Assembly: GCA_963675745.2 (NCBI GenBank)
Contig: CAXXWX010000001.1
Coordinates: 224,001 to 288,000 of the forward strand
DNA length: 64,000 bases
Direction of reading: 5' to 3'
Origin: Phycisphaerae bacterium
GTDB taxonomy: Bacteria; Planctomycetota; Phycisphaerae; UBA1845; Fen-1342
The translations under genes were made by a program, and so were the position numbers. Below the pieces are notes generated by a model, which ran no database searches, was not told the DNA's origin, and saw only the letters and a list, made by a program, of their open reading frames with translations. Below are positions 45,370-60,101 of this stretch, piece after piece (the stretch's first letter is position 1; every line of letters begins with the position of its first letter).

Positions 45370-45691
45370 GATAGTGCCTCCGCGAGGATCCTGACTGCCA
45401 CGTGTATGGTCCGCGGTCGGCCCCCCTCTCGTCAAGCCGACGGCGGCGGGAACGCAATTCGCAGGCAGAGATTCCACAAATCACGGATGGCACGGCGTGC
45501 GGGTTGTTCGTTTGCGCGCGTGACCAACCGTGCCGCCTTAGCGGTGTCCAAATACCATCGATTCGGTGAAATACGTGGACACCGGGGCGCAATCGGTGGA
45601 AAATCCGCCTGGACTTGCGCACGAGTGCCGCATGGCGGCATCATCGTCGGCGCTAATCGATGCACGGCAAGCTCGCTCACGGCTGAGTTCA

Positions 45692-47311
45692 ATGCACACG
45701 CCCGGCAACCAGATTTCGGCCACACCCGCCAGGCGACGCCGCATCCGCCTGATCAATCCCAATTCGCCGCTTTCCAACATCACGATGCCGCGGGTCATTC
45801 AGAAGATGACGTTTTCGCGCAAGGCGCTGTTCGCGCCGACTGGGTTGATGATCTGTGCCGCGGTTATGCCGGATAGCTGGGACGTGGAGGTGGTGGATGA
45901 GTGCGCGCGCGAACACACGCACGAGCCGACCGCGGATGTTGATGTGGTCGGCATCAGCGCGATGACCACGCAGGCGCCGCGCGCCTATGCGCTGGCGGAC
46001 GCATACCGCGCCGCCGGCGTCACGGTCGTCCTGGGAGGAATCCACCCCAGCGCATTGCCCGACGACGCCCTGGCCCACTGTGATGCGGTGTGCAAAGGCG
46101 ACGCCGAGTCCACCCTGCCGCACCTGATTGCCGACTGGGAAGCCGCCGCCGCGCGCGGCGCCGACCCACGTACGGGGCTGAAGCGCATCTACGACTGGGC
46201 TGAGTATCCCAGTGCGCCGATCGCCACGCCGCGCAAGGACGTGATCCGCGCGGCGGATTACCTGGTTGCCAACCCGATTCAGACGACGCGCGGGTGTCCG
46301 CACTACTGCAACTTCTGCACAACGCCGGCCGTCTTCGGACGCAAGTTCCGCCAGCGCGAGATCGGCGCGATCGTCGAGGAAATTCGCGAGGCACAGGAGC
46401 GTCACCGGGCCTGGTGCTACATCTTTGCCGATGACAACTTCGGTGGTAACCAGAAGTGGGCCCTGGAGCTGTGCGAGCAGTTGCGGCCGCTGAACATCTC
46501 GTGGGCCAGCCAGTGTGACATCCTGATCGCGCGCAACGACCGCTTGCTGACGGCGATGCGCGCCAGCGGGTGCCAGGGCTTGATACTCGGGCTGGAAAGC
46601 GCGCGTCAGGGGACGCTTGATGAGGCCGGCAAGCGGTTTGTCAAGTCAGTGAACTACGAGACGAACATCCGCAAAATCCAGGCGGCGGGGATCAGCCTGT
46701 GGGGTTCGTTTATATTCGGGTTTGACACCGATGGATGGCGCGACTGCATGAGGGCGTGTCGGTTCGCGCAGCGCATGCACCTGTCGATGAGCTGCTACCC
46801 CGTGCTCACGCCCTATCCGGGCACCGAGTTCTTTGAGCAATACCAGCGTCAGGGGCGCATCCGCACGTATGACTGGCAGAAGTACAACGGCGCATCGGTG
46901 GTCTTCGAACCCAAGCGCATGACCGCCAAGCAACTGCGCCACGCCCAGATGGCCGCCTTCGCCGAATTCTTCACACCACGTTCAGCGCTGGGGCGCATGG
47001 GGATCTATCCATTCAAGGGGCGTGCGTGGGTAGCCAACCTGGCGATCTGGAAGGGGATTCGCTACTACTACGCGAAGAGCGGGCGCCGGATTCCACGATT
47101 CCACGATTTTCTCGATGCCGACGCGCGCGCGTGGAACTACGAAAACGAACCGTGGGCGCGCGCGCGGGAAGAGTGCCGCGCGCCGGGCGCTGCGCAAGAA
47201 CCGGCGGTGTCGCTGGATGCCGCGACGTTGATGGCCGGCGCCGTCAGTCAATGCGATCCATTCCACCAGGCGGCGGCGCGACTGACCCACCCGAAGACAC
47301 GTCACAAATGA
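45692..47311 (+). CDS. B12-binding-domain radical SAM protein (start uncertain)
   Basis: VVGISAMT, VLGGIHPS, TRGCPHYCNFC, FADDNF, LTPYPGT. Confidence 0.88.
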   Translation: MHTPGNQISATPARRRRIRLINPNSPLSNITMPRVIQKMTFSRKALFAPTGLMICAAVMPDSWDVEVVDECAREHTHEPTADVDVVGISAMTTQAPRAYALADAYRAAGVTVVLGGIHPSALPDDALAHCDAVCKGDAESTLPHLIADWEAAAARGADPRTGLKRIYDWAEYPSAPIATPRKDVIRAADYLVANPIQTTRGCPHYCNFCTTPAVFGRKFRQREIGAIVEEIREAQERHRAWCYIFADDNFGGNQKWALELCEQLRPLNISWASQCDILIARNDRLLTAMRASGCQGLILGLESARQGTLDEAGKRFVKSVNYETNIRKIQAAGISLWGSFIFGFDTDGWRDCMRACRFAQRMHLSMSCYPVLTPYPGTEFFEQYQRQGRIRTYDWQKYNGASVVFEPKRMTAKQLRHAQMAAFAEFFTPRSALGRMGIYPFKGRAWVANLAIWKGIRYYYAKSGRRIPRFHDFLDADARAWNYENEPWARAREECRAPGAAQEPAVSLDAATLMAGAVSQCDPFHQAAARLTHPKTRHK

Positions 47312-47446
47312 ATTTGTTTTATGCTTGCATCCCGGCATTGCGCTTACAGAATTTAACTGGTGGCACAACGCAACGTAAATTGCGGCACTCGATACCCGCC
47401 GTTTTTGAGTGAATTTTCTTCACAGGCCCCGCCGGGAGGTAAGCAG

Positions 47447-48082
47447 ATGCATTCAACCATGAGTTGTCGTTCAGTCACGCGCGTCGCGATGATTGTTTTG
47501 CTGGGTTTGCTGGTGTCAGGTGGATGCGCAACGCTGCCACCGCGGGCCGACATCCCGCTCGGCACATGGGAAGGCGAGGGGATTTTCGTATTCAAGGGGT
47601 GGGACAAGGGCGCGGAAGAGTACGACGCGGAGGAGATGCCATCCACGCAGAACACCTATCCGACAACGCTCACCATCGAGCAAACGACTTATGAGGATGA
47701 GCCGGTCACCAAGGTGGAGATCGTTTCGCTGCGCGGCCCGATGCACGGCGAAGATGACGGCGACCGCACGCACATAATCCTGTACCTGAAGCTGGTTGAC
47801 CGTATTTCCAACGACATCTCGTTCTGGAAGGCGGTCGATATGCTCATCAGCTTCAGCGAAGACGACAAGCCGGAGCACGGCGAAGCGTCTGACGTTCCGA
47901 TCAACGCCACGTGCATGCGCTACGCGGACGGCATTGCCTTCCAGATTCGCTACACCGACGGCTTCACCGACAATCTGCGTTTCCAGGGCCGTCACGTGCG
48001 AAAGCTGGGCATCTACCACCCGGAGAGCGACGATGAAAGCCAGGGACTGATCCACTGGGCCGAGGTTCTCGAACGCCGGTAG
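47447..48082 (+). CDS. hypothetical lipoprotein
   Basis: GGAGG RBS, LLVSGGC lipobox. Confidence 0.7.
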   Translation: MHSTMSCRSVTRVAMIVLLGLLVSGGCATLPPRADIPLGTWEGEGIFVFKGWDKGAEEYDAEEMPSTQNTYPTTLTIEQTTYEDEPVTKVEIVSLRGPMHGEDDGDRTHIILYLKLVDRISNDISFWKAVDMLISFSEDDKPEHGEASDVPINATCMRYADGIAFQIRYTDGFTDNLRFQGRHVRKLGIYHPESDDESQGLIHWAEVLERR

Positions 48083-48474: not shown

Positions 48475-50319
48475 ATGATTGCCCACACAGTCGTCTCGCG
48501 AACCACGGCCGCTGTCCTCTCACTGGCGCTGATCGTCGGCGCGAGCGCCGAACAACGCTTCGCCGATCTGGTCGGCGACGTCAAGGTCGGGGATGTCACC
48601 CAGACCGATCCACTCCAGGTACCTTTCATCACCTGGGGCGGTGATATGGCGACGTTTTTCGCCAACGGCGGGTTGGAGACCAAGCCCGGGACCGTCTTCC
48701 AGAAACAAGGGCTCAATCTCAAGCTCGTACCGGGCGACGATTTCGCGCAGCAGGTCCGCGACTATGTCTCCGGCAAGAGCCCCTTCCTGCGCGGCACCTT
48801 CCGCATGATCGGCATGGCGTCGGAAGTCATCGCCCAGGATGCGCGCACCAAGGGCGTTGTGATCATGCAGTTGACCTGGTCGGCCGGCGATCACATGGTG
48901 GTCCGACAACACATCAAGAGCGTCACCGACCTCAAGGGCAAGAAGATCGTCCTTCAGCAAGGCGGCCCACACGTCGGCCTGCTGGACGACATTCTGAAGA
49001 CCGGCCAGCTCTCGTGGGATGATGTCAACATCATCTGGGCCGACGACCTGACAGGCACGCCTAAGAGCCCGGCCGAGATGTTCCGCAAGGACAAGTCGAT
49101 CGACGGCTGCCTGGTCATCACGCCCGACATGATCGGGCTGAGCGGCGGGCTGCAAAACACGGGCAGCGGCGCCGAGGGAACCGTCTCGGGCGCGCGTGTG
49201 CTTGTATCGACCGCCGAGCTGTCCCGCTCGGTCGCCGACGTGTACGTATGTCGCAAAGACTTCTACGACGCTAACAAGGAACTGGTCACAAAGTTCGTCG
49301 CCGGCTACCTCAAGGCCTGCGAAGAGGTCATCGAGCTTCGGAAAGCCTACGAGTCCAAGGGCTCAAAGGAATACATGGCCCTGCTCCAGATGACGCAGGA
49401 TATTTACGGCAAGGACGTCATCCCCACGCTTGAGGAGGATGCCCACGGCTTGATCGTCGACTGCACGTTTGTCGGCTATCCCGGAAACGTCGCCTTCTTT
49501 GAGGACCAGAGTAACCTCAACGGCTTTGAGCCGTTTCAGAAGAGCGCGCTCGACCTGGCGACTTCGCGCGGCTATGCCAAGGTCCGCGCGGCGCTGTTCC
49601 CGTCGGGGCTGGACTACAAGTCACCGCTGTTCACTAACTACCTGGCGGTCACCGACGTTCAGCGCGGGCAGCGCTTCAAATCCGATGAGGTGCTTGGCGA
49701 AATCGAGTCGCTCAGTGCCGGCGACGAGCTCGATGAGCGCACCATCGTCGCCTTCACCATCAACTTCCGCCCTAATCAGACCGAATTCAGCACCGAGCAA
49801 TACGGCGTGGAGTTTCAGCGCGTGATCGAGATGGCCAGCAAATACGGCAATGCCGTCATCGCCATCCGCGGCCACTCAGACCCGACCAAAACACTTCAGC
49901 ACCTTGTCAAAGCCGGCATGCACAAGGGGATTCTGAAACGCACCGGCAGCGCCGGGAACTACAAGTACGCGCTGAACGGCAAGCCGCTGGATATCAGCCA
50001 GACCAAAGTGCTAACGCAACTGATCGAGCAGGGTGAGTTTGACGGCGCCGGCGATTTCAACCCGCGGGCGACCATGCAGTCGGCGCTCAATCTCTCGCGG
50101 CGGCGCGCCGAAGCCGTGCGCGACTCGATCATCGAATACGGCAAGGGCAAGGGCGTGTTCGTCGACGCCAGCCAGATCCAGCCGGTGGGCGTCGGCATTC
50201 GCGAGCCGTTCCTGGCGCGGCCGACGAACATGGAAGAGGCCATGCAGAATATGCGGGTCGAGTTCCGACTGATTCGCGTGACCGCCGAAGCGTCGGGCGC
50301 GTCGGATTTCGATTTCTAG
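48475..50319 (+). CDS. periplasmic NMT1/SsuA-type binding protein fused to an OmpA-like C-terminal domain
   Basis: Signal peptide, WSAGDHMV..DLKGKKI, INF..IRGHSD..LSRRRAEAV..GVG..NMRVEF. Confidence 0.8.
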   Translation: MIAHTVVSRTTAAVLSLALIVGASAEQRFADLVGDVKVGDVTQTDPLQVPFITWGGDMATFFANGGLETKPGTVFQKQGLNLKLVPGDDFAQQVRDYVSGKSPFLRGTFRMIGMASEVIAQDARTKGVVIMQLTWSAGDHMVVRQHIKSVTDLKGKKIVLQQGGPHVGLLDDILKTGQLSWDDVNIIWADDLTGTPKSPAEMFRKDKSIDGCLVITPDMIGLSGGLQNTGSGAEGTVSGARVLVSTAELSRSVADVYVCRKDFYDANKELVTKFVAGYLKACEEVIELRKAYESKGSKEYMALLQMTQDIYGKDVIPTLEEDAHGLIVDCTFVGYPGNVAFFEDQSNLNGFEPFQKSALDLATSRGYAKVRAALFPSGLDYKSPLFTNYLAVTDVQRGQRFKSDEVLGEIESLSAGDELDERTIVAFTINFRPNQTEFSTEQYGVEFQRVIEMASKYGNAVIAIRGHSDPTKTLQHLVKAGMHKGILKRTGSAGNYKYALNGKPLDISQTKVLTQLIEQGEFDGAGDFNPRATMQSALNLSRRRAEAVRDSIIEYGKGKGVFVDASQIQPVGVGIREPFLARPTNMEEAMQNMRVEFRLIRVTAEASGASDFDF

Positions 50320-50490
50320 CGCGCGTTCAACGAACCGGATGCGTCAGACCGCGCGAGCCTGGCGCATGACCGACCGAAGGTCGGTCCCAAAACTGTAGCG
50401 GCCGGTGCCTCGCCGGCCGTTGGTCACCAACGGCGCCGCTCCGCGCGAGCAGCCTGCGAGATGCAGGCCGCACATGACTGGAGGTTTCCG

Positions 50491-51405
50491 ATGCCTAGAG
50501 CTCTCTGTTGCCTGGTCGTGGCCATCGGTGTTGCGGGTATGGCCCCGGCCGGCGACCCAATCTATACAGACAACGTCGTGATTGTTCTCGATGGTTCCGG
50601 ATCGATGAAGGAACAAATGCCCGGTACGCGCGAGAGCAAGATGGCAGCCGCGAAACAGGCACTGCACGAAGTGCTGGCCACGCTGCCTGAAACGACCCAC
50701 GTCGGCGTGCTGGCCTTCAGCAGCCATGCCCGCCAACCATGGCTCTACGACCTGGGCTCGCAGGATGCGGTCCGGCTGAGAGACGCGATCGACGGCCTGC
50801 GCCCCGATGGCAAGACGCCGCTCGGGCGTTTCCTGAAACTGGGCGCCGATCGATTGCTCGAGCAGCGCCGGAAACAGTTCGGCTACGGCAGCTATCGCCT
50901 GCTGGTGGTTACCGACGGCGAGGCCAGCGACGCGAAACTTGTCGAGCGTTACACACCCAGCGTCATCGCCCGCGGCATCACGCTGGATGTGATTGGTGTG
51001 GACATGGCCTCGCGGCACACGTTGGCAACCAAGGCGCACTCATACCGTACCGCCGACGACGCCGATTCGCTGCGTCAGGCGATTGCCGAAGTCTTCGCCG
51101 AGGTATCCACAACCGACTCAGATGACGCCACGGGTGATGACGCGTTCGCGGTCATCGCCGGCTTGCCGCCCGAGATTGCAACGGCGGCCGTTCAGGCTCT
51201 GGCCATATCTGGTAATGAGCCGATCGGCGAGGCTGACAGCGCCGCCCCGCAGCGCAGCAGCGCCCCCGCTCAGCCCCGCGCGTCATCACCACAGCCGCAG
51301 GCCCCCTCCAAGAGCATCTTCATGCGCACGTGCTGTTCGGGCGTGTTCATGCTTGCGATTCTGGTGATCGTTGCTGTCGTCCTGCTCCGAAAGGCCAAGG
51401 GATGA
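50491..51405 (+). CDS. exported vWA-domain protein with C-terminal TM anchor
   Basis: VLDGSGSM MIDAS motif, TPL, VVTDGE, DVIG. Confidence 0.88.
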   Translation: MPRALCCLVVAIGVAGMAPAGDPIYTDNVVIVLDGSGSMKEQMPGTRESKMAAAKQALHEVLATLPETTHVGVLAFSSHARQPWLYDLGSQDAVRLRDAIDGLRPDGKTPLGRFLKLGADRLLEQRRKQFGYGSYRLLVVTDGEASDAKLVERYTPSVIARGITLDVIGVDMASRHTLATKAHSYRTADDADSLRQAIAEVFAEVSTTDSDDATGDDAFAVIAGLPPEIATAAVQALAISGNEPIGEADSAAPQRSSAPAQPRASSPQPQAPSKSIFMRTCCSGVFMLAILVIVAVVLLRKAKG

Positions 51406-52979
51406 GCGCTGGTCGAGCAAAGGGCATCCTGATCGCCGTTGTCGCCTGGGTGGTGATCATCGCCATTCTGGCGATCGCGTATCGCTTTATCTTCCGGCCG
51501 GCCCGCGAGGCGAAGCTCACCGACGAGACCGGTTCCGCCAGTCGTTATGAACACGAGCTGGTCGTCGCGGCCGACTCGTTTTCGGGATACGCGCTGCTGC
51601 GCTGCCCCGAGTTGGCCGGCGATCTGGCCGGCGGCGGCATCAAGCTTGTTATTGACGATGACGGGGCCGATTATGGCGCCCGCATTGAGGCCCTGCGCGA
51701 CGGCGACGTGCAGTTGGCCGCGTTCACGGTGGATTCCTTCATTTCAGCGGGCGCTGCCATCGGAGATTTCCCGGCGACGATCGTCATGATCCTCGACGAA
51801 TCCAAGGGGGCCGATGCGATTGTGACGTATGACAGCGGGGTGGCACAGGTGCACGACCTCGACCACCCCGATGCGCGTTTTGTGCTCACGCCCGGATCAC
51901 CGAGCGAGTTTCTGGCCCGCGTGACGATCGCCGATTTCGGCCTCCAGGACCTGTCAAACGACTGGATTGTCGCGGCCGACGGCGCCGCGGACGTATTTGC
52001 CCGTTTTTGTGAGGCCGACAAGAACCAGCGCCGTGCATACGTCTTGTGGGAGCCGTTCGTGCTTCAAGCGCTGGAGAAGCCCGGCGCGCGCGTCTTGCTC
52101 GACAGCTCGAATCTCAAGGGGTATGTCTTTGACGTGCTGGTGGCCGAGCGCGACTTCCTCCATAACCACGAGGATCTGGTCAGGACATTCGTCGAGGCGT
52201 ATCTGCGCGCCGGTTACGCGCATCGTGGCGACGAGCGCATGACCGACCTGGTGGTTGCCGATGCCAAGCTGACCGGCAGCCCGCGTCTCAAAACGCAGCA
52301 GGCACGCAAACTCGTCGACGGCATCCAGTGGAAGAACACGCTCGAGAACTATGCGCACTTCGGCTTGCTGCCCGATGACGACCAGCAGGGGCTGGCGCAC
52401 ATAGAGGATGTGATCAGCAATATCAGCAAGGTGCTGGTGCAGACCGGTGCCCTGGGCGCCGACCCAATCAACGCGCGGGCCAGCACGTTGTTCTTTGATC
52501 GTATTCTTCGCGACTTGCAGGCCGCCGACTTTCATCCGGGCAAGCGGCTCGGTGTGATGAGCGGCGTCGGTCCCGGGACGAGCGACCTGGACGCGGTTCG
52601 CGGCGATGTCGAGTTGCCGGCGCTGACAGACGAACAGTGGGAGCGGCTGATGCCGGTGGGTGAGCTGCGCACCAGGCCGATCAGCTTCGCCCGCGGAACC
52701 GCGCGCATCAACATACAGAGCCAGCGTGAACTGGCCGACCTGGCGCAACGGCTCAAAGCCTGGCCGCAGTACTACCTGACCGTGATCGGCCAGGCGCGGG
52801 CCGGCGACAACCCCGAGGCCGATCGCCGACTGGCTGAGCAGCGCGCCGAGGCGGTGGTCGCGTTTCTGGGTGAGGCCGGCCTGGACAATAATCGCATGCG
52901 GCGAAAAGCGACGACGCTGACGGGTCGCGGCGGCGCGGCCCAGTCGGTATCCTTCGTGGTCGGCCAACCGCCGTACTAG
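51402..52979 (+). CDS. membrane-anchored NMT1-type binding protein fused to a degenerate OmpA-like domain
   Basis: N-terminal TM, DSFSGY, DESKGADAIV, SPSEF, LWEPF, ISFARG..LAEQRAEAV; ATGA overlap with the vWA gene. Confidence 0.78.
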   Translation: MSAGRAKGILIAVVAWVVIIAILAIAYRFIFRPAREAKLTDETGSASRYEHELVVAADSFSGYALLRCPELAGDLAGGGIKLVIDDDGADYGARIEALRDGDVQLAAFTVDSFISAGAAIGDFPATIVMILDESKGADAIVTYDSGVAQVHDLDHPDARFVLTPGSPSEFLARVTIADFGLQDLSNDWIVAADGAADVFARFCEADKNQRRAYVLWEPFVLQALEKPGARVLLDSSNLKGYVFDVLVAERDFLHNHEDLVRTFVEAYLRAGYAHRGDERMTDLVVADAKLTGSPRLKTQQARKLVDGIQWKNTLENYAHFGLLPDDDQQGLAHIEDVISNISKVLVQTGALGADPINARASTLFFDRILRDLQAADFHPGKRLGVMSGVGPGTSDLDAVRGDVELPALTDEQWERLMPVGELRTRPISFARGTARINIQSQRELADLAQRLKAWPQYYLTVIGQARAGDNPEADRRLAEQRAEAVVAFLGEAGLDNNRMRRKATTLTGRGGAAQSVSFVVGQPPY

Positions 52980-53010
52980 GATCACGAAGGTATCGTCGCG
53001 CTGCGCGGAT

Positions 53011-53748
53011 ATGTTGGACAAAGGCAAGCTTCGCAACCGGGTGCTGCTCAATCTGCTGACGAGCCCACTGACGCTCGTCCCCTTTGTGCTGGGCACGACG
53101 ATGCTCGCCGGCGCATTGGCGTTCAGCAACAAACTCGGTGCGCTGGCGTTTGCGGGGCTGGCCTGTGTGCTGGGCGCCGTTGGCACGTATGTAACGCGTG
53201 TGCTGCTGGGGACCGAGGCGCAGACCGCCAAGGTAATCGAGCAGATGCAGCGTGAAGCTCAGGTCGCCCGTGAAAGGCGGCTTGATAAGCTGGATAAACG
53301 GCTGGTGCGGGATCGCGACGCACGCACGCAGGCGGCCCTGCGCGACTTGCGTGCTTTTGAACAGGCGTTCAGGGCGCGCCAAACGTGGGCGCGGAAGCTG
53401 AACGCGACCTCGGCCTTCGACATCGTCTCCAGCGTGCAGGATCTGTTTGACGGATGCGTACAGGCCCTGGAGACGTCGCTCGAGTTGTACGAGACGGCCC
53501 GCAAGCTGCGAACCGACGAGGCCCGCCAGCCGATTCTGGAAAGGCGCGAGGAGATTATCCAGGACGTGCAGAGCAGTATCGAACAGCTCAGCCGTATCAT
53601 GGTCGGAATCCAGAGTCTCGGCACGGAGACCGCCACCGACAGCGATCTGGCCCGCATTCGATCGGAGCTGGACCAGAACCTCACGGTGGCCAGACGTGTC
53701 GAGGAGAAAATGCGTTCGTGGCAGGAACACTCGTTCGAGATGGAGTGA
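53011..53748 (+). CDS. 2-TM membrane protein with cytoplasmic coiled coil
   Basis: Two TM helices followed by a long helical region. Confidence 0.75.
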   Translation: MLDKGKLRNRVLLNLLTSPLTLVPFVLGTTMLAGALAFSNKLGALAFAGLACVLGAVGTYVTRVLLGTEAQTAKVIEQMQREAQVARERRLDKLDKRLVRDRDARTQAALRDLRAFEQAFRARQTWARKLNATSAFDIVSSVQDLFDGCVQALETSLELYETARKLRTDEARQPILERREEIIQDVQSSIEQLSRIMVGIQSLGTETATDSDLARIRSELDQNLTVARRVEEKMRSWQEHSFEME

Positions 53749-53821
53749 GCGCAGAACCCTGAGCGCAGACAAGCGGGTCCGTGATCGATACCCGGCAGAC
53801 GCAACCACAGGAGATTCGGAT

Positions 53822-54646
53822 ATGTTCGGCGCGATTTGGCGATACTTCAGAGCAATCGGCTATTACCTGACCGGTCGTGTTGACGCGGCACGCAAGGTGC
53901 TGGACACAAACCCGCACGTCGTGCGGGCCACGTTCGACCAGGTGGTCCGTGACAAACGGGGTCGTGTAAACCAGTACAAGGAAGCCGTGGCCACACTCAT
54001 CGCTCAAAAGGAGAAGAAGGTCAACCAGGTCGAGCGCCTCACCGAGGAAGTCGAGAAGCTCGAACGGCTCAAGACCGGTGCCCTGGCGAAAGCCAAGCAG
54101 CGCGTGGCCCAGCTTCAAGCCGCCGGCAAGGCCATGGCGGAGATCCAGCAGGACGGCGAATACCTCAAGTGCCAGGGGGCGTTCAGGGACTTCACCTCAA
54201 CTCTCGCCGAGAAGCTGGACCGCATCAGCACGCTCGAGGAGGAGATTCAAGCCGGCGACGTGCGCGTAAACGAGCACAAGGTCCAGCTCCAGAGTCTGCT
54301 GCGCGAGATTGAGAAGATCAAGGAGGAAGCCGCCGACACCGTCGCCGACATGATCACCGCCAAGGAGGAGAGGGAGGTAGCCGACATGCTCACCGGCCTG
54401 TCGGCTGATCGCAGTTCGGCCGAGCTGGCCCGCATGCGCGATCTGCGACAGCAGGTTAAGGCCGAGGCACAAGTATCCAAGGAATTGGCCGGCACGGAAA
54501 CCCAGGCCCAGGAGGCGGAGTTTCTGGAATATGCGCGCACCGACGCCGCGCAGGACGAGTTCGCCGCCCTGGTCGGTCTGGCCGAAGAGAAAGACACGGC
54601 GCCACCGACAACCGAGGCGCCCGAGAAAGACAAGCTGCCGGAGTAG
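53822..54646 (+). CDS. PspA/IM30-like coiled-coil protein
   Basis: Amphipathic N-terminal helix MFGAIWRYFRAI..TNP, long heptad coiled coils, 274 aa. Confidence 0.7.
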   Translation: MFGAIWRYFRAIGYYLTGRVDAARKVLDTNPHVVRATFDQVVRDKRGRVNQYKEAVATLIAQKEKKVNQVERLTEEVEKLERLKTGALAKAKQRVAQLQAAGKAMAEIQQDGEYLKCQGAFRDFTSTLAEKLDRISTLEEEIQAGDVRVNEHKVQLQSLLREIEKIKEEAADTVADMITAKEEREVADMLTGLSADRSSAELARMRDLRQQVKAEAQVSKELAGTETQAQEAEFLEYARTDAAQDEFAALVGLAEEKDTAPPTTEAPEKDKLPE

Positions 54647-54694
54647 ACGACCACCCGCGGCGCGCACTGCGCTGATTAACGAAGGGAGACAACC

Positions 54695-55756
54695 ATGAAG
54701 ACCACAACCCGAGCATTGCTGATCATTGCGGTCCTGACGCTGACAACAACCGCGCTCGCCGGCCCGCCAAGTTTCTCGCTTGCCTGGAGTGAGTACCCGT
54801 CCTGGAGCGCGTTCGGCGTGGCCCACGAATTCAAGCTGATCAACGGCAAGGAGGGCGAGTTCGGACCGCTCGAAAGAAAGTGGAACGTGGACATCGTGCT
54901 GAAGCAGGCTGACTACGAGCCGTGCCTGGTCATGTATGGCGCGCAGCAGTGTGACGCGGTCTGCATCACCAACATGGACGTGCTCAACCCGAGCCTGTCC
55001 GTGCCATCGGTGGCGATTCTGCCCACATCCACCAGTTTCGGCGCCGACGCCTGCATCGTCACGTCCGACATTACCGAAGTGAAACAGCTCAAGGGCAAGA
55101 AGGTCCACGGGCTGGCTCAAACCGTCTCCGAATATTGCTTCGTACGCGGGTTGCAGCAACTTGGCGAAAATCCCGACGAATACGAGTTTGTCAACATGGA
55201 CCCCGGCGCCGCCGCCGTCGCGATGCAACAGAAACAGGACGGCTTTGAGGCGATCGTGGTGTGGAACCCGTTCGTGCTGGAGACGCTTAGCCGGCGCAAA
55301 GACACGCGGGTGCTCTTTGACTCGACGAAGATCCCCGGCGAGATCGTCGACATGGTCGTCATCTCCCAGGCGGCGCTCGACAAGCCCGGCGGCGAGGCGT
55401 TTGCCTGTGCCGTCATCGACACTTTCTACGAGCTCAACAAGCTGCTGGAGCGGCCGGACACGCGCGATGAAGCCCTGGTCGCGCTGGGCGAGAAATTCTC
55501 GAATCTCGACCTTCAGGCCATGCGCACCGTCGTCAAGCAGACCCGGTTTTATGACAAGCCGAAGAAGGCGGTCACGCTCTTCGAGTCGGACGAGTTCAAG
55601 AAGGTGATGGGCATTGTCGTCAAGTTCTGCAAGGACAAGGAGATTGTCCCGAAGGAGCCCAAGGTCGACTTCGGCAAAAAGAAAGACACCAAGGTCAACC
55701 TTCGTTTCGACCCCGAATACATCAATCAGGTGGTCAAAAAGAACAAGGGCGGCTAG
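54695..55756 (+). CDS. ABC substrate-binding protein, NitT/TauT type (resembles the urea-carboxylase-region binding proteins)
   Basis: AWSEYPSW, ITNMD, LKGKKV, VVWNP, FDSTKIPGEIVD. Confidence 0.85.
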   Translation: MKTTTRALLIIAVLTLTTTALAGPPSFSLAWSEYPSWSAFGVAHEFKLINGKEGEFGPLERKWNVDIVLKQADYEPCLVMYGAQQCDAVCITNMDVLNPSLSVPSVAILPTSTSFGADACIVTSDITEVKQLKGKKVHGLAQTVSEYCFVRGLQQLGENPDEYEFVNMDPGAAAVAMQQKQDGFEAIVVWNPFVLETLSRRKDTRVLFDSTKIPGEIVDMVVISQAALDKPGGEAFACAVIDTFYELNKLLERPDTRDEALVALGEKFSNLDLQAMRTVVKQTRFYDKPKKAVTLFESDEFKKVMGIVVKFCKDKEIVPKEPKVDFGKKKDTKVNLRFDPEYINQVVKKNKGG

Positions 55757-55786
55757 CAGGGATTCAATGACCCAGTGCTGTCCGGC

Positions 55787-55854
55787 GTGTGCCACGGCTC
55801 TGTGAGCCGTGCTTTTCTCACGGCGGCACAGCACGGCTCACAGAGCCGTGGCAC
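55787..55854. repeat. perfect REP-like inverted doublet
   Basis: GTGCCACGGCTCTGTGAGCCGTGC ... GCACGGCTCACAGAGCCGTGGCAC. Confidence 0.85.
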
Positions 55855-55903
55855 GACAGCGACGAGGCCGATTGCAGGCGACTGCCCACTGACAGGAAAC
55901 TGA

Positions 55904-56710
55904 ATGATCCGAAAACCCATCGGACTTCGCTGGTACTTGACGCTGGGCATCCTGTCGATTGTGGTGCTGCTGGTGGGTTACAGCGCGCTGGCCTCTGCCC
56001 AGAAACGCAAGAACCCGGACGACACGACGGTCCCGTCCTGGACTCAACTCAAGGAAGGCGTCGTTAAGTCTATCGAACCCCACAAGCGCACCGGTGAGCG
56101 CTGGCTCGTCGTCGATACAAAGGCCACCGGCGTGCGCCTGCTGGTCGGTATGCTCTTCGGTGTCGGCGGCGCGGTCCTGCTCGGCGTGCTCATGGGCTGC
56201 TTCCCTCTGGTCGAGGCAATTATCTCCCCGCCCCTGACCATCTTCGCCAAGATCCCCGGCACCGCCGCCATGGCCGTGTTCTTCGTACTTGTCGGCACCG
56301 GTTTCCAGATGTACGTGGCGATGATCGCGTTCGGCGTGCTACCGAGCCTGGCGTTGACCGTCCATCTCGCCGTGCGCGACGTGCCCGCCGAGTTGCTTAA
56401 CAAGTCCTATACGCTGGGCGCGTCGCACGCCGAAGTCGTCTGGAACATCATCTTCCGCCACATTCTGCCCAAGCTCATCGACGCCGTGCGCCTTCAGATC
56501 GGGCCGGCGATGGTCTTCCTGATCGCGGCCGAGATGCTTGTCGGCGACGAGGGGTTCGGCTATCGCATCCGGCTTCAGCAGAAGAAGCTGGACATGAGCA
56601 CGATATTCTTCTACCTGGCGGTGCTGGCCGCCTTCGGGTTCGTGATTGATCACCTGCTGCGCAAGATCCAGCGTTGGCTGTGCCCCTGGCACAGACCCGT
56701 GAAACTGTGA
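55904..56710 (+). CDS. ABC transporter permease (NitT/TauT)
   Basis: TM helices, YTLGAS EAA-like loop, LIAAEML. Confidence 0.88.
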   Translation: MIRKPIGLRWYLTLGILSIVVLLVGYSALASAQKRKNPDDTTVPSWTQLKEGVVKSIEPHKRTGERWLVVDTKATGVRLLVGMLFGVGGAVLLGVLMGCFPLVEAIISPPLTIFAKIPGTAAMAVFFVLVGTGFQMYVAMIAFGVLPSLALTVHLAVRDVPAELLNKSYTLGASHAEVVWNIIFRHILPKLIDAVRLQIGPAMVFLIAAEMLVGDEGFGYRIRLQQKKLDMSTIFFYLAVLAAFGFVIDHLLRKIQRWLCPWHRPVKL

Positions 56711-56718
56711 CGCGAAAT

Positions 56719-57657
56719 ATGTCTGAGATCATCCTGCACTGCAACAACGTGCATCACTGGTTCGGCGCGAACAAGGTTCTCTTTGACGTGGAACTCAAAG
56801 TGGGCCGCGGGAACGTGGTCGCCGTCGTCGGGCCGAGCGGCTGCGGGAAGTCGACGCTGCTGCGCGCGATCGTGGGCACGCACCCGCCGCGCCGCGGCCG
56901 CGTCTTGATGACCGGCGAGGGTGGGCAAAGTTACGAAGTCCGCCGTCCCGGCCGCGATCGGGGGATTGTCTATCAGCGTTACTCGCTCTTCCCGTTCCTG
57001 ACCGCCCGCCAGAACGTGGCCGTTGGGCTGATGCTCGACCAGACGACGATTCTCGGCCGCCTGCTCACGGCCTATCCGGTCAGCGCGCTGCGCCGCCGGC
57101 ATCTTGATGAGGCCGCCGAGCTCCTCGAAAAGGTTGGTCTCGGCCGGGCGATGAAGCTCTACCCGCATGAGATGTCAGGCGGCATGCAGCAGCGTGTCGC
57201 CGTGGCGCAAGCCCTGATCATGAAGCCGCGCATTCTGTTGCTCGACGAGCCTTTCGGCGCGCTCGACGAGGCCATGCGCGAGGAGCTACAGCGTATGTTG
57301 CTGCGCCTGCACGCGGAGAACGTGGCCGCCGAGAAAGCTGGCGAACCCGCGCCGTACACGGTACTGATCGTCACACACGAATTGAACGAGGCCCTGTTCG
57401 TCGGTGATCGCGTGATCGGGCTTTCGCAGTACTGGAACTGGCGTGAGAAGAACCACACGACCTGCCCCGGCGCGACGATCATCTATGACCGCCCGGCCCC
57501 GATCTTTGACCCCGACAGTCCGCGTGACTTCGAGCAACTGGTCGAGCAGCGTGAGGAAATCCGCCAGGCGGTCTTTAACCCGGACTATCTCCAGGAACGT
57601 GAGGAGTTTCAGCGCTACTGGAGCAGTCAACGCCCGGCGGCTCCACCGAGCAGCTGA
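56719..57657 (+). CDS. ABC transporter ATP-binding protein (NitT/TauT)
   Basis: GPSGCGKST, MSGGMQQR, LLLDEPFGALD, VTH. Confidence 0.92.
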   Translation: MSEIILHCNNVHHWFGANKVLFDVELKVGRGNVVAVVGPSGCGKSTLLRAIVGTHPPRRGRVLMTGEGGQSYEVRRPGRDRGIVYQRYSLFPFLTARQNVAVGLMLDQTTILGRLLTAYPVSALRRRHLDEAAELLEKVGLGRAMKLYPHEMSGGMQQRVAVAQALIMKPRILLLDEPFGALDEAMREELQRMLLRLHAENVAAEKAGEPAPYTVLIVTHELNEALFVGDRVIGLSQYWNWREKNHTTCPGATIIYDRPAPIFDPDSPRDFEQLVEQREEIRQAVFNPDYLQEREEFQRYWSSQRPAAPPSS

Positions 57658-57782: not shown

Positions 57783-58667
57783 TTATCGACGGCGAATCAA
57801 TGCCACGATTCCGAGGCCGAGCAGCATGAGCGTGCCTGGCTCCGGGACAACCTGGAGGTTGTCGTAGATGATGTACTGCGACCCGGCCGGGGCGGCGAGT
57901 GAACTAAACAGGTCCGCATAGCCCAAGCTGATCTGGCCGTCCAGAACTTCCGAAACGTCCTGGATGATCGGCGTCATGCCGGTGGCGCCATCGAGCGAGT
58001 ACGTGATCGTACCACCCACGCCGCCAACAAAGTCGATCCGCAGCGTCGTCCAGGCGTTACCCGGCGAGCCGGCCCACGTATACGGCGGGCTCGGGAACAG
58101 GTTTTGATACGTGTCGCCCGTCGCATTCGTCGTGTTCGTACTGTTCAGGTAGCTCGCGTCGCCGGATGGAACCGAAGTGACGCTCGGCTTGAAATGTCGA
58201 TAGTCGGACGCCGAGCCGCCCTCGCCGGTCATCGACATGAAGTGACCGGTGCCTGAAATCGGCGTAAAGATCGAGTTGGCCGTGACGCCGTCGCCGGCCA
58301 CGCCCACGTGCATGAACTCGGTTGTGCCACTAGTGGCGTAGACGCCCATATACACGTCGACGATCAGCGAGTACGCATCCAGACCGACAATCGGCGTGTT
58401 GTGAAACGCGGTTAGCGTGTTCGCGACGCCGAGCGTGTCATTGGCGGTCATGCGCAGGCCGCCGACGTCGCCGGCGGTCGAATTCGGGGCCAACGGAATG
58501 CCGGCGGCGATGTAGTCGAAAGCGAACGCGGCGGATGAATCGGGTCCACCAATCTCGACAAGCGTGTAGTTCGCCGAGCTGTCGACTTCAAAGTCGTCCG
58601 CGATGAGTTGTGCACCGGCAACTGAAGTTATCGCCAGCACACAGGCCAATACAAGCAGGTTCTTCAT
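57783..58667 (-). CDS. PEP-CTERM sorting-domain protein
   Basis: Signal peptide; VPEPGTLMLLGLGIVALIRRR end. Confidence 0.9.
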   Translation of the reverse strand: MKNLLVLACVLAITSVAGAQLIADDFEVDSSANYTLVEIGGPDSSAAFAFDYIAAGIPLAPNSTAGDVGGLRMTANDTLGVANTLTAFHNTPIVGLDAYSLIVDVYMGVYATSGTTEFMHVGVAGDGVTANSIFTPISGTGHFMSMTGEGGSASDYRHFKPSVTSVPSGDASYLNSTNTTNATGDTYQNLFPSPPYTWAGSPGNAWTTLRIDFVGGVGGTITYSLDGATGMTPIIQDVSEVLDGQISLGYADLFSSLAAPAGSQYIIYDNLQVVPEPGTLMLLGLGIVALIRRR

Positions 58668-59018
58668 GACGATATGCTCCTTTTCTGCGCCTCCTGAGTC
58701 GCTTCCGATTCCGGACTGCACGTTGCTCAGCAAAGACGTGACCGCATTGACGGTGGCGTGCCGCCCCGCGCGGACACTGAGCCGCGAATCCTAACTACTC
58801 TACTTTAGCCCCCGGGCCATCCGGGAGCAAGCCAGAAAACATCGAGAACCGGCGTCGAATCACGCCAGATAACACGCCCGACATTCCTGCAACGCCCAGC
58901 GCCAAAATGGGGCCGATAATCAAACGCGTATCAGGCGCCGCCACGGCGCGGCGGCGTCGCGGAAACGACGGCCGCGAGGCTATACTGGCTGGCGTGACGA
59001 GCGAAGCCAGGAGAGCAC

Positions 59019-60101
59019 ATGCATCCACGAGTCGAACGCTTTCCCAAACCAGATCCGGACCATGGCAGGTTCCTTACAGTCCTCCGCCGTGACCGTCCTG
59101 ACCGCGTGCCCGTAGTCGAACTTGCGCTACACGCAGACGTGACCGCCGCACTCCTGGATGACCCGCCGCGAGCAACGAGCGATGCGCGCGCGGACTCAAG
59201 TCACCGGGTCGAGCAGTGCGTGCGCCTGCACCATCGGCTTGGCTACGACGTCGTCAAAGTCTCTGCAACGATCCCCTTTAACATAGGTCGGCTTGTCGGC
59301 ACCGACCCATCGGCGCTCAGCAGCAGCCGGCGCGAGTGGGCCGATCCGCACAGCGGCCCGATTCAAAGCCGCGAAGACCTCGAACGCTTTCAGTGGCCCA
59401 AACCCAGCGATATCGACTTCGGCCCGCTGGATGCGGCCACCGACTCCCTGCCGGACGGAATGGCGCTGCTGGGATTCTCGGGCGGCGTCTTGGAATTCGC
59501 CATGGACCTGCTGGGCATGCAGAATTTCATGCTGGCCACGCGCCGCGATCCCGAACTGGTTGCCGCCGTCATCGAACGCGTCGGTCAGACGATTTACGGC
59601 GTCTTCGAAGCGTATTGCCAGATCGACTCGATTTGCGCGCTCTGGCTCGGCGACGATTTGGGGCACAAACACGGCCCGCTTGTCTCACCAAAGCTGGTGA
59701 CTGAGCAACTTGTGCCCTGGTACAAACGCTTTGCCGATCTCGCCCACCGGCATGGACGCCCGTTCATTCTGCACAGTTGCGGCGACACGTCACTGGTGAT
59801 CGAGTCGATCATTGACGCGGGGATCGACGCCAAGCACAGCTTCGAAGACGGCATCACGCCGGTGGAGCAGTTTGCCGACAAGTGGGGCGACAAGGTTGCG
59901 GTGCTGGGCGGCGTTGACGTACATATCCTGGCGGCTGGCGACGAAGATGCGATCCGCACGCGTACACGCGAGATCCTCGAAAAGCTGGCGCCGCGCGGCG
60001 GCTACGCGGCGGGCTCGGGCAACAGCATCCCCAACTATGTCGCCCCCGAGCACTATCTCGCAATGCTGGAGACCGTTGCCGAGTTCAATGGGTTGAGGTG
60101 A
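59019..60101 (+). CDS. uroporphyrinogen decarboxylase-like (URO-D/MtaA family) protein
   Basis: PDRVPVVE, GDDLG, LHSCG, LGGVD, GSGNSI. Confidence 0.85.
   Translation: MHPRVERFPKPDPDHGRFLTVLRRDRPDRVPVVELALHADVTAALLDDPPRATSDARADSSHRVEQCVRLHHRLGYDVVKVSATIPFNIGRLVGTDPSALSSSRREWADPHSGPIQSREDLERFQWPKPSDIDFGPLDAATDSLPDGMALLGFSGGVLEFAMDLLGMQNFMLATRRDPELVAAVIERVGQTIYGVFEAYCQIDSICALWLGDDLGHKHGPLVSPKLVTEQLVPWYKRFADLAHRHGRPFILHSCGDTSLVIESIIDAGIDAKHSFEDGITPVEQFADKWGDKVAVLGGVDVHILAAGDEDAIRTRTREILEKLAPRGGYAAGSGNSIPNYVAPEHYLAMLETVAEFNGLR

Follow-up and report, generated by a model that had tools for sequence, protein, structure and literature searches.

Within a window of 64,000 nucleotides from a Phycisphaerae bacterium (GenBank assembly GCA_963675745.2, contig CAXXWX010000001.1, positions 224,001 to 288,000 of the forward strand; locus positions below are counted from the first letter of this stretch), eight open reading frames (ORFs) on the plus strand fill positions 48475-57657 and are designated g1 to g8. 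All eight are judged to be real genes, and ORF calls and domain scans bear out the original prediction, made from the letters of the DNA, that they are co-oriented and mostly closely spaced. From g1 to g8 the intergenic distances are 171, -4 (an ATGA overlap), 31, 73, 48, 147 and 8 bp. The operon, which combines a PspA-like protein with an ATP-binding cassette (ABC) importer and with binding proteins fused to OmpA-like domains, is a real, conserved variant of a type of system already predicted in print. The predicted set of eight genes stands, but its most constant partner, a tandem AAA+ ATPase encoded outside the window, had been overlooked.

The product of g1 (48475-50319, +) is exported and consists of an NMT1/SsuA-class binding domain (Pfam NMT1, E-value 8e-11) and a C-terminal OmpA-like domain with an insert, whose OmpA match (E-value 2e-4) is below the family cut-off. 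It is followed by g2 (50491-51405, +), which encodes a signal peptide, a vWA domain (E-value 1e-14) with a complete metal-ion-dependent adhesion site (MIDAS) and a C-terminal membrane anchor (transmembrane (TM) segment 275-304). The product of g3 (51402-52979, +) carries an N-terminal TM anchor, an SsuA/NMT1-class binding domain and a degenerate OmpA-like domain (OmpA, E-value 2e-8). Two TM segments and a helical bundle characterize the product of g4 (53011-53748, +), which matched no family. A divergent PspA/Vipp1 (ESCRT-III-like) protein with a long hairpin and a putative amphipathic segment at its N-terminus is encoded by g5 (53822-54646, +), and a free periplasmic substrate-binding protein (SBP), sister to the SBPs of guanidine importers, by g6 (54695-55756, +). 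The last two genes encode a type I ABC importer permease of the TauC/SsuC class (g7, 55904-56710, +; BPD_transp_1, E-value 3e-18) and an NrtD-class ABC ATPase with intact catalytic motifs (g8, 56719-57657, +; ABC_tran, E-value 1e-32).

A scan of GTDB genomes with g5 yielded at least 49 loci, many of the 49 listed being truncated by contig ends; the relatives are kin to one another, so that the counts do not represent independent events. All eight genes occur in the same order in 19 of the 49 listed loci, and in 15 of 25 when only loci with sufficiently long flanks are considered. The gene order is thus not due to chance, and the expectation that the set is kept together in other genomes holds. 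Directly upstream of g5, g4 is found in 35 of the 49. Among the matches listed, the closest relatives of g5 are planctomycete records; full g1-g8 copies are present in Planctomycetota, Verrucomicrobiota and one Desulforapulum genome, and partial copies are labelled Myxococcota, Omnitrophota, Sumerlaeota, Hydrogenedentota, Nitrospirota and Acidobacteriota. The g5 family comprises 594 clusters at 50% identity. Its occurrence is patchy: g5 was found in two of 41 near relatives and in 20 of 401 genomes of the phylum (own genome counted). In four verrucomicrobial loci (L019, L020, L022 and L033) a conserved 140-aa protein without known family is inserted between g6 and g7.

The partner of this cluster is a Cdc48-like tandem AAA+ ATPase of about 600 aa. 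In 29 of the 34 listed GTDB loci that extend 5.2 kb or more downstream, its gene stands after g8 or directly after g5; the remaining five genomes (5/5) encode it at another site. Within the 401-genome phylum sample, the gene lies inside the cluster in 18 of the 19 other planctomycete matches, the exception (G087) being the weakest match. As the cluster consists of the PspA-like gene and the AAA+ gene only in 11 of the 49 listed GTDB loci and in 11 of 18 loci of the planctomycete sample, this pair is the core of the system. In the C-terminal AAA+ domain the Walker A, pore loop, Walker B and arginine-finger motifs are all present, the motifs of the N-terminal copy are degenerate, and the closest solved relatives are VAT and Cdc48/p97 (E-value 3e-25).

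In the genome studied here the AAA+ gene is located on a separate contig (C14:43339-45169) behind a block of genome-wide repeats, and its reading frame is shifted by one base within a run of G (L052:14438). An in-frame form was found in one of two public runs, whereas the other run agrees with the assembly. The neighbouring radical SAM gene (L052:11637-12795; MqnE-like, by eye) is likewise split by a frameshift, which is corrected by both public runs; this points to indel errors in the assembly. The frameshift in the AAA+ gene is likely, though not proven, to be a sequencing error. Regarding misassembly as the cause of the absent linkage, the sequence just 3' of g8 is unique and contains no repeat, and none of the run contigs reaches across the repeat that precedes the AAA+ gene. 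Behind this gene C14 encodes a RaSEA-like radical SAM protein (G000:C14:43339-46197 and L052:13340-16213 for the pair), an arrangement also seen in six of the 49 listed loci. In several planctomycetes the PspA-AAA+ dyad stands directly behind a DUF3686/AAA protein of about 1850 aa (L027:2974-13080, L083, L084 and L086).

The AlphaFold2 (AF2) model of g5 (mean predicted local distance difference test (pLDDT) 77, predicted template modelling score (pTM) 0.48) was compared with solved structures using Foldseek. Ranks 1-9 were all Vipp1 or PspA (E-values 3.5e-4 to 1.2e-2, 218-252 columns, 19-23% identity), which supports the ESCRT-III-like fold anticipated for 53822-54646; the modelled hairpin and hinge-helix fold matches solved PspA/Vipp1 over most of its length. 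A g5 profile reached Vipp1/PspA among PDB sequences only at E-values of 1-9, and PspA_IM30 was the top (weak) family in 25 of 38 g5 homologs, with a best E-value of 3.8e-5. With PspA/Vipp1, g5 shares the helix order and a long hairpin, and it has a candidate N-terminal amphipathic segment (helix 3-16, low pLDDT of about 55-60, hydrophobic moment 0.48, mean hydrophobicity 0.33, pattern conserved). It differs from them in scoring below the PF04012 cut-off, in its longer hairpin, the tip of which bears an insert, and in its pairing with a Cdc48-like ATPase. According to a 2025 review (PMC7619361), a Vps4-like ATPase appears to be absent in bacteria.

The AF2 model of g4 consists of two TM helices and a helical bundle (pLDDT 74.6). 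It yielded no Foldseek match at an E-value of 0.001 or less, and VIA-align returned generic helical bundles, with no Snf7/ESCRT-III chain among the listed matches. The closest named Atlas cluster is Rv2743c/PspM at 0.89, a lead only (the cluster is 12% PF25587), and the PspM profile PF25587 gave no match to g4 at E-values up to 1. Compared by profile, g4 showed no likeness to g5, to the XpaC protein of locus L041 or to the protein encoded upstream in locus L027. As in the mycobacterial PspA-PspM (Rv2744c-Rv2743c) and XpaC-type arrangements, a 2TM helical protein of about 240 aa is encoded beside PspA, although PF25587 does not match g4 and g4 shows no profile likeness to the XpaC protein. By analogy with these pairs, g4 is a probable membrane partner of g5. 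At L041:4619-5326, upstream of the PspA-like gene, the place of g4 is taken by a gene of the XpaC (Halogen_Hydrol) family.

For the alignments of motifs and pockets, matches with less than 75% query coverage, with stops or in duplicate were dropped. The DxSxS...T...D metal site of the g2 vWA domain is complete, and D.SGSM, TPLG and TDG are kept in 27 sequences. In OmpA-type domains the GH.D and RA residues bind peptidoglycan. The OmpA-like domain of g1 has conserved RGH.D and LNLS..RA motifs; in that of g3, GH.D is replaced by G.aR and the aspartate is lost. Walker A (GPSGCGKS), signature (MSGGM), Walker B (LLLDE) and H-loop (THE) motifs of g8 are conserved in 34 sequences, while the EAA loop of g7 reads K-a-y-T-L-G-A-S and not E-A-A. 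The suggestion that the ABC transporter is a repurposed one finds no support, because the ATPase motifs of g8 are intact.

The binding pockets resemble that of GimA, the guanidine-binding SBP of Synechocystis GimABC, for which the published work gives a measured dissociation constant of 97 nM and, from a docking model, a pocket of W59, W62, D135, F205 and D233 (PMC12704784). The corresponding residues of g6 (Y34/W37/D118/W190/D219, Y-W-D-W-D) are invariant in 37 of 37 sequences and those of g3 (F60/Y63/D138/W216/D244, F-Y-D-W-D) in 35 of 35. The pocket of g1 (W54/D57/D139/I215/D255; W-D-D-I/V-D in 33 of 33) differs from the GimA pattern. Five TIGR03427-like SBPs, two of them encoded beside Guanidine-II riboswitches, read W-W-D-W-D at equivalently spaced positions; the spacing in one of them is 3/71/70/29, compared with 3/73/70/28 in GimA. 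With GimABC/TIGR03427, g6 and g3 thus share the SBP class and five aromatic or acidic pocket positions (aligned via homologs). They differ in that g6 attains 157.8 bits against TIGR03427 (E-value 4e-46), whose equivalog cut-off is 333.9, in the lack of a riboswitch or recurring guanidine-degrading gene and in their setting within a PspA cluster. No earlier statement linking binding proteins of such an operon to a GimA-type pocket was found in a literature search. In two planctomycete genomes, divergent pairs of Guanidine-II riboswitches stand beside TIGR03427-like ABC importers (L106:7277-7557 and L107:7257-7587), and in a member of the Nitrospiraceae an extra SBP-OmpA fusion with a W-Y-D-W-D pocket has its gene on the other strand near a PspA-AAA+ dyad (L008:5771-7444).

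The type of system was described by Ravi et al. in 2024 (PMC11237479), who predicted operons of PspA, inactive-AAA/AAA, a TM 'Snf7', ABC ATPase, permease and PBPB-OmpA, with OGG56892.1 as an example, and proposed ATP-dependent membrane remodelling tied to solute transport. Of the features named there, the ABC ATPase, the permease and the PBPB-OmpA fusion are present in the operon, and the tandem AAA+ protein with an inactive N-terminal copy is linked to PspA in relatives and unlinked in the genome studied here. A TM-anchored helical partner is also common to both. As far as the article text and supplement go (vWA is mentioned in neither, and the associated web app may list the exact layout), the present operon differs in having three binding domains, a vWA protein, another gene order and an unlinked AAA+ gene. 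Instead of 'Snf7' it contains g4, a 2TM partner with no Snf7-like match, OGG56892.1 being compared by its description only. It had been claimed that no characterised system has this make-up; that is sound as regards experiments, since neither experimental work on such a system nor a closer description was found in the literature searched, but not as regards prediction, the system type already being in print.

Complete g1-g8 sets in order are also present in two huge phage records, LR756511.1 (595 kb; L093:5072-13634) and IMGVR_UViG_3300017388_000001 (436 kb; L095:4517-16797), both of which contain a Gp23 capsid gene. The latter has a shortened AAA+ gene downstream of g1-g8; in LR756511.1 no match to the AAA+ ATPase was found. 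A huge-phage preprint (bioRxiv 10.64898/2026.10.24.761521) reports 15 of 189 PspA loci beside complete ABC transporters. These likewise combine a phage-borne PspA with SBP, permease and ATPase, but neither OmpA fusions nor the AAA+ ATPase are named for them in section 9 of the preprint. A scan of viral contigs with g1 returned nothing. In LR756511.1, genes labelled GroES-like and DnaJ-like (by eye) directly follow g1-g8.

The reading that we favour, to which we give about an even chance, is an ESCRT-III-like system for maintenance of the inner membrane, made up of a PspA polymer, a dedicated Cdc48-like motor and g4 as anchor, with an attached, wall-tethered module that imports a cation. The interactions, ligand and physiological trigger that we infer for it are as follows. 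Judging from the PspA/Vipp1 fold, g5 would polymerise on the cytoplasmic face of the inner membrane, to which g4, from its position in the operon, may recruit it. The AAA+ ATPase encoded on C14, which co-occurs with g5, would disassemble the polymer as Vps4 does with ESCRT-III. The domain contents suggest that g1 is bound to peptidoglycan and that g3 and g2 are anchored in the membrane, the three jointly forming a scaffold between wall and membrane. From their pocket residues, g6-g7-g8 would be a working importer of a small nitrogen-rich cation of the guanidinium/amidine type, which g3 probably binds as well, and at sites tethered to the wall the module may couple the activity of PspA to this solute. 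The role in the envelope and in membrane remodelling foreseen by the original prediction is supported.

Several results weigh against this reading. PspA_IM30 matches g5 with an E-value of 0.066 and 13.2 bits, compared with a gathering score of 33.9; the pTM of the model is just 0.48, and in VIA-align E. coli PspA (Z 10.7, rmsd 3.2, 124 aligned) falls behind generic coiled coils such as Smc (Z 13.3, root-mean-square deviation (rmsd) 4.1, 163 aligned). In the genome studied the AAA+ gene lies apart from the operon and its assembled sequence carries a frameshift, with an in-frame form in only one of the two runs. A single transcript is not required, because the operon is broken between g6 and g7 in three other genomes, where g7 and the AAA+ gene lie on a different contig from g1-g6. 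The docked GimA pocket was located through the spacing of residues in homologs rather than on the GimA sequence. At 135 and 205, TauA and SsuA also have acidic and aromatic residues, and TauA has one at 233 as well, and therefore only the aromatic pair discriminates. A guanidine riboswitch was not found in the window between 44000 and 62000 or in seven related loci, and a guanidine-degrading gene is not among the recurring neighbours of the operon. Since the pockets are alike, yet their positions are partly class-wide and neither riboswitch nor catabolic gene is present, the ligand of g6, and also of g3, is probably a small cation rich in nitrogen, which need not be guanidine.

Some of the same evidence could be read as a sensor instead of an importer, the model of the original prediction, in which ligand-loaded binding proteins would drive the ABC unit to pass a mechanical signal to g4 and g5 without net transport. 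Three binding domains for one permease, two of them tethered via OmpA-like domains, the unusual EAA loop of g7 and the lack of a recurring catabolic gene fit this idea, which we nevertheless regard as doubtful: g7 and g8 belong to the ordinary TauC/SsuC and NrtD classes, their motifs being intact, and PspA and the AAA+ ATPase persist without the ABC genes in the 11 of 18 loci. That the dyad is found alone, that splits at g6|g7 and g8|AAA are tolerated and that g6 is sister to the SBPs of guanidine importers would also suit two co-regulated but mechanically independent modules, namely a repair pair of PspA and AAA+ ATPase, and an importer, equipped with accessory binding proteins, that scavenges nitrogen. 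The placement of g4-g5 inside the binding-protein and ABC genes, with the AAA+ gene after g8, an order that several phyla and two phages share, makes such independence unlikely.

The complete copies in the two phage records with Gp23 capsid genes, together with the patchy spread among near relatives and across the phylum, raise the further idea of a phage-conflict system that seals or excludes at the membrane in the course of infection; hosts would use it, and huge phages would have captured it. It is very unlikely: the neighbours are housekeeping or unrelated genes, with no defence genes recurring beside the operon loci (by a survey of neighbours only, PADLOC not having been used), the G+C content of the operon is similar to that elsewhere in the window, and g5 had no match across 72,556 plasmids. 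In its boldest form, the favoured membrane-maintenance reading would extend to a full bacterial analogue of ESCRT-III/Vps4. The Cdc48-like motor would recycle the PspA polymer, and a ligand of the guanidinium type, either free guanidino compounds or cationic peptides rich in arginine that attack the envelope, would switch its assembly after being caught by the wall-tethered binding proteins and relayed via the ABC unit, with huge phages carrying the machine to control host membranes. We consider this extension quite improbable.

The layout itself is not new, having been predicted in 2024 (PMC11237479). The g5 family has a near-obligate Cdc48-like partner, while bacterial PspA/Vipp1 polymers are usually said to have no disassembly ATPase of the Vps4 type (PMC7619361). 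The small two-gene form makes the recycling of bacterial ESCRT-III polymers directly testable with two purified proteins, and the pocket residues supply a concrete class of ligands for screening.

Promoter and terminator scans of the locus gave results at chance level. The spacer between g1 and g2 (50320-50490) contains a repetitive extragenic palindromic (REP)-like palindrome that is repeated genome-wide (27 blastn matches in the genome, self counted). A long REP-like repeat lies between g6 and g7 (55786-55857), where the spacer has 110 blastn matches including self and a predicted fold of -77.9 kcal/mol. Rfam matches of miRNA type to this element were below the gathering score and were rejected in favour of the repeated palindrome. 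The flanking genes are unrelated to the operon and encode, upstream, a B12-binding radical SAM protein (45566-47311, +) and a 240-aa protein without family (47360-48082, +) and, downstream, a PEP-CTERM protein (57783-58733, -) and a URO-D family protein (59019-60101, +).

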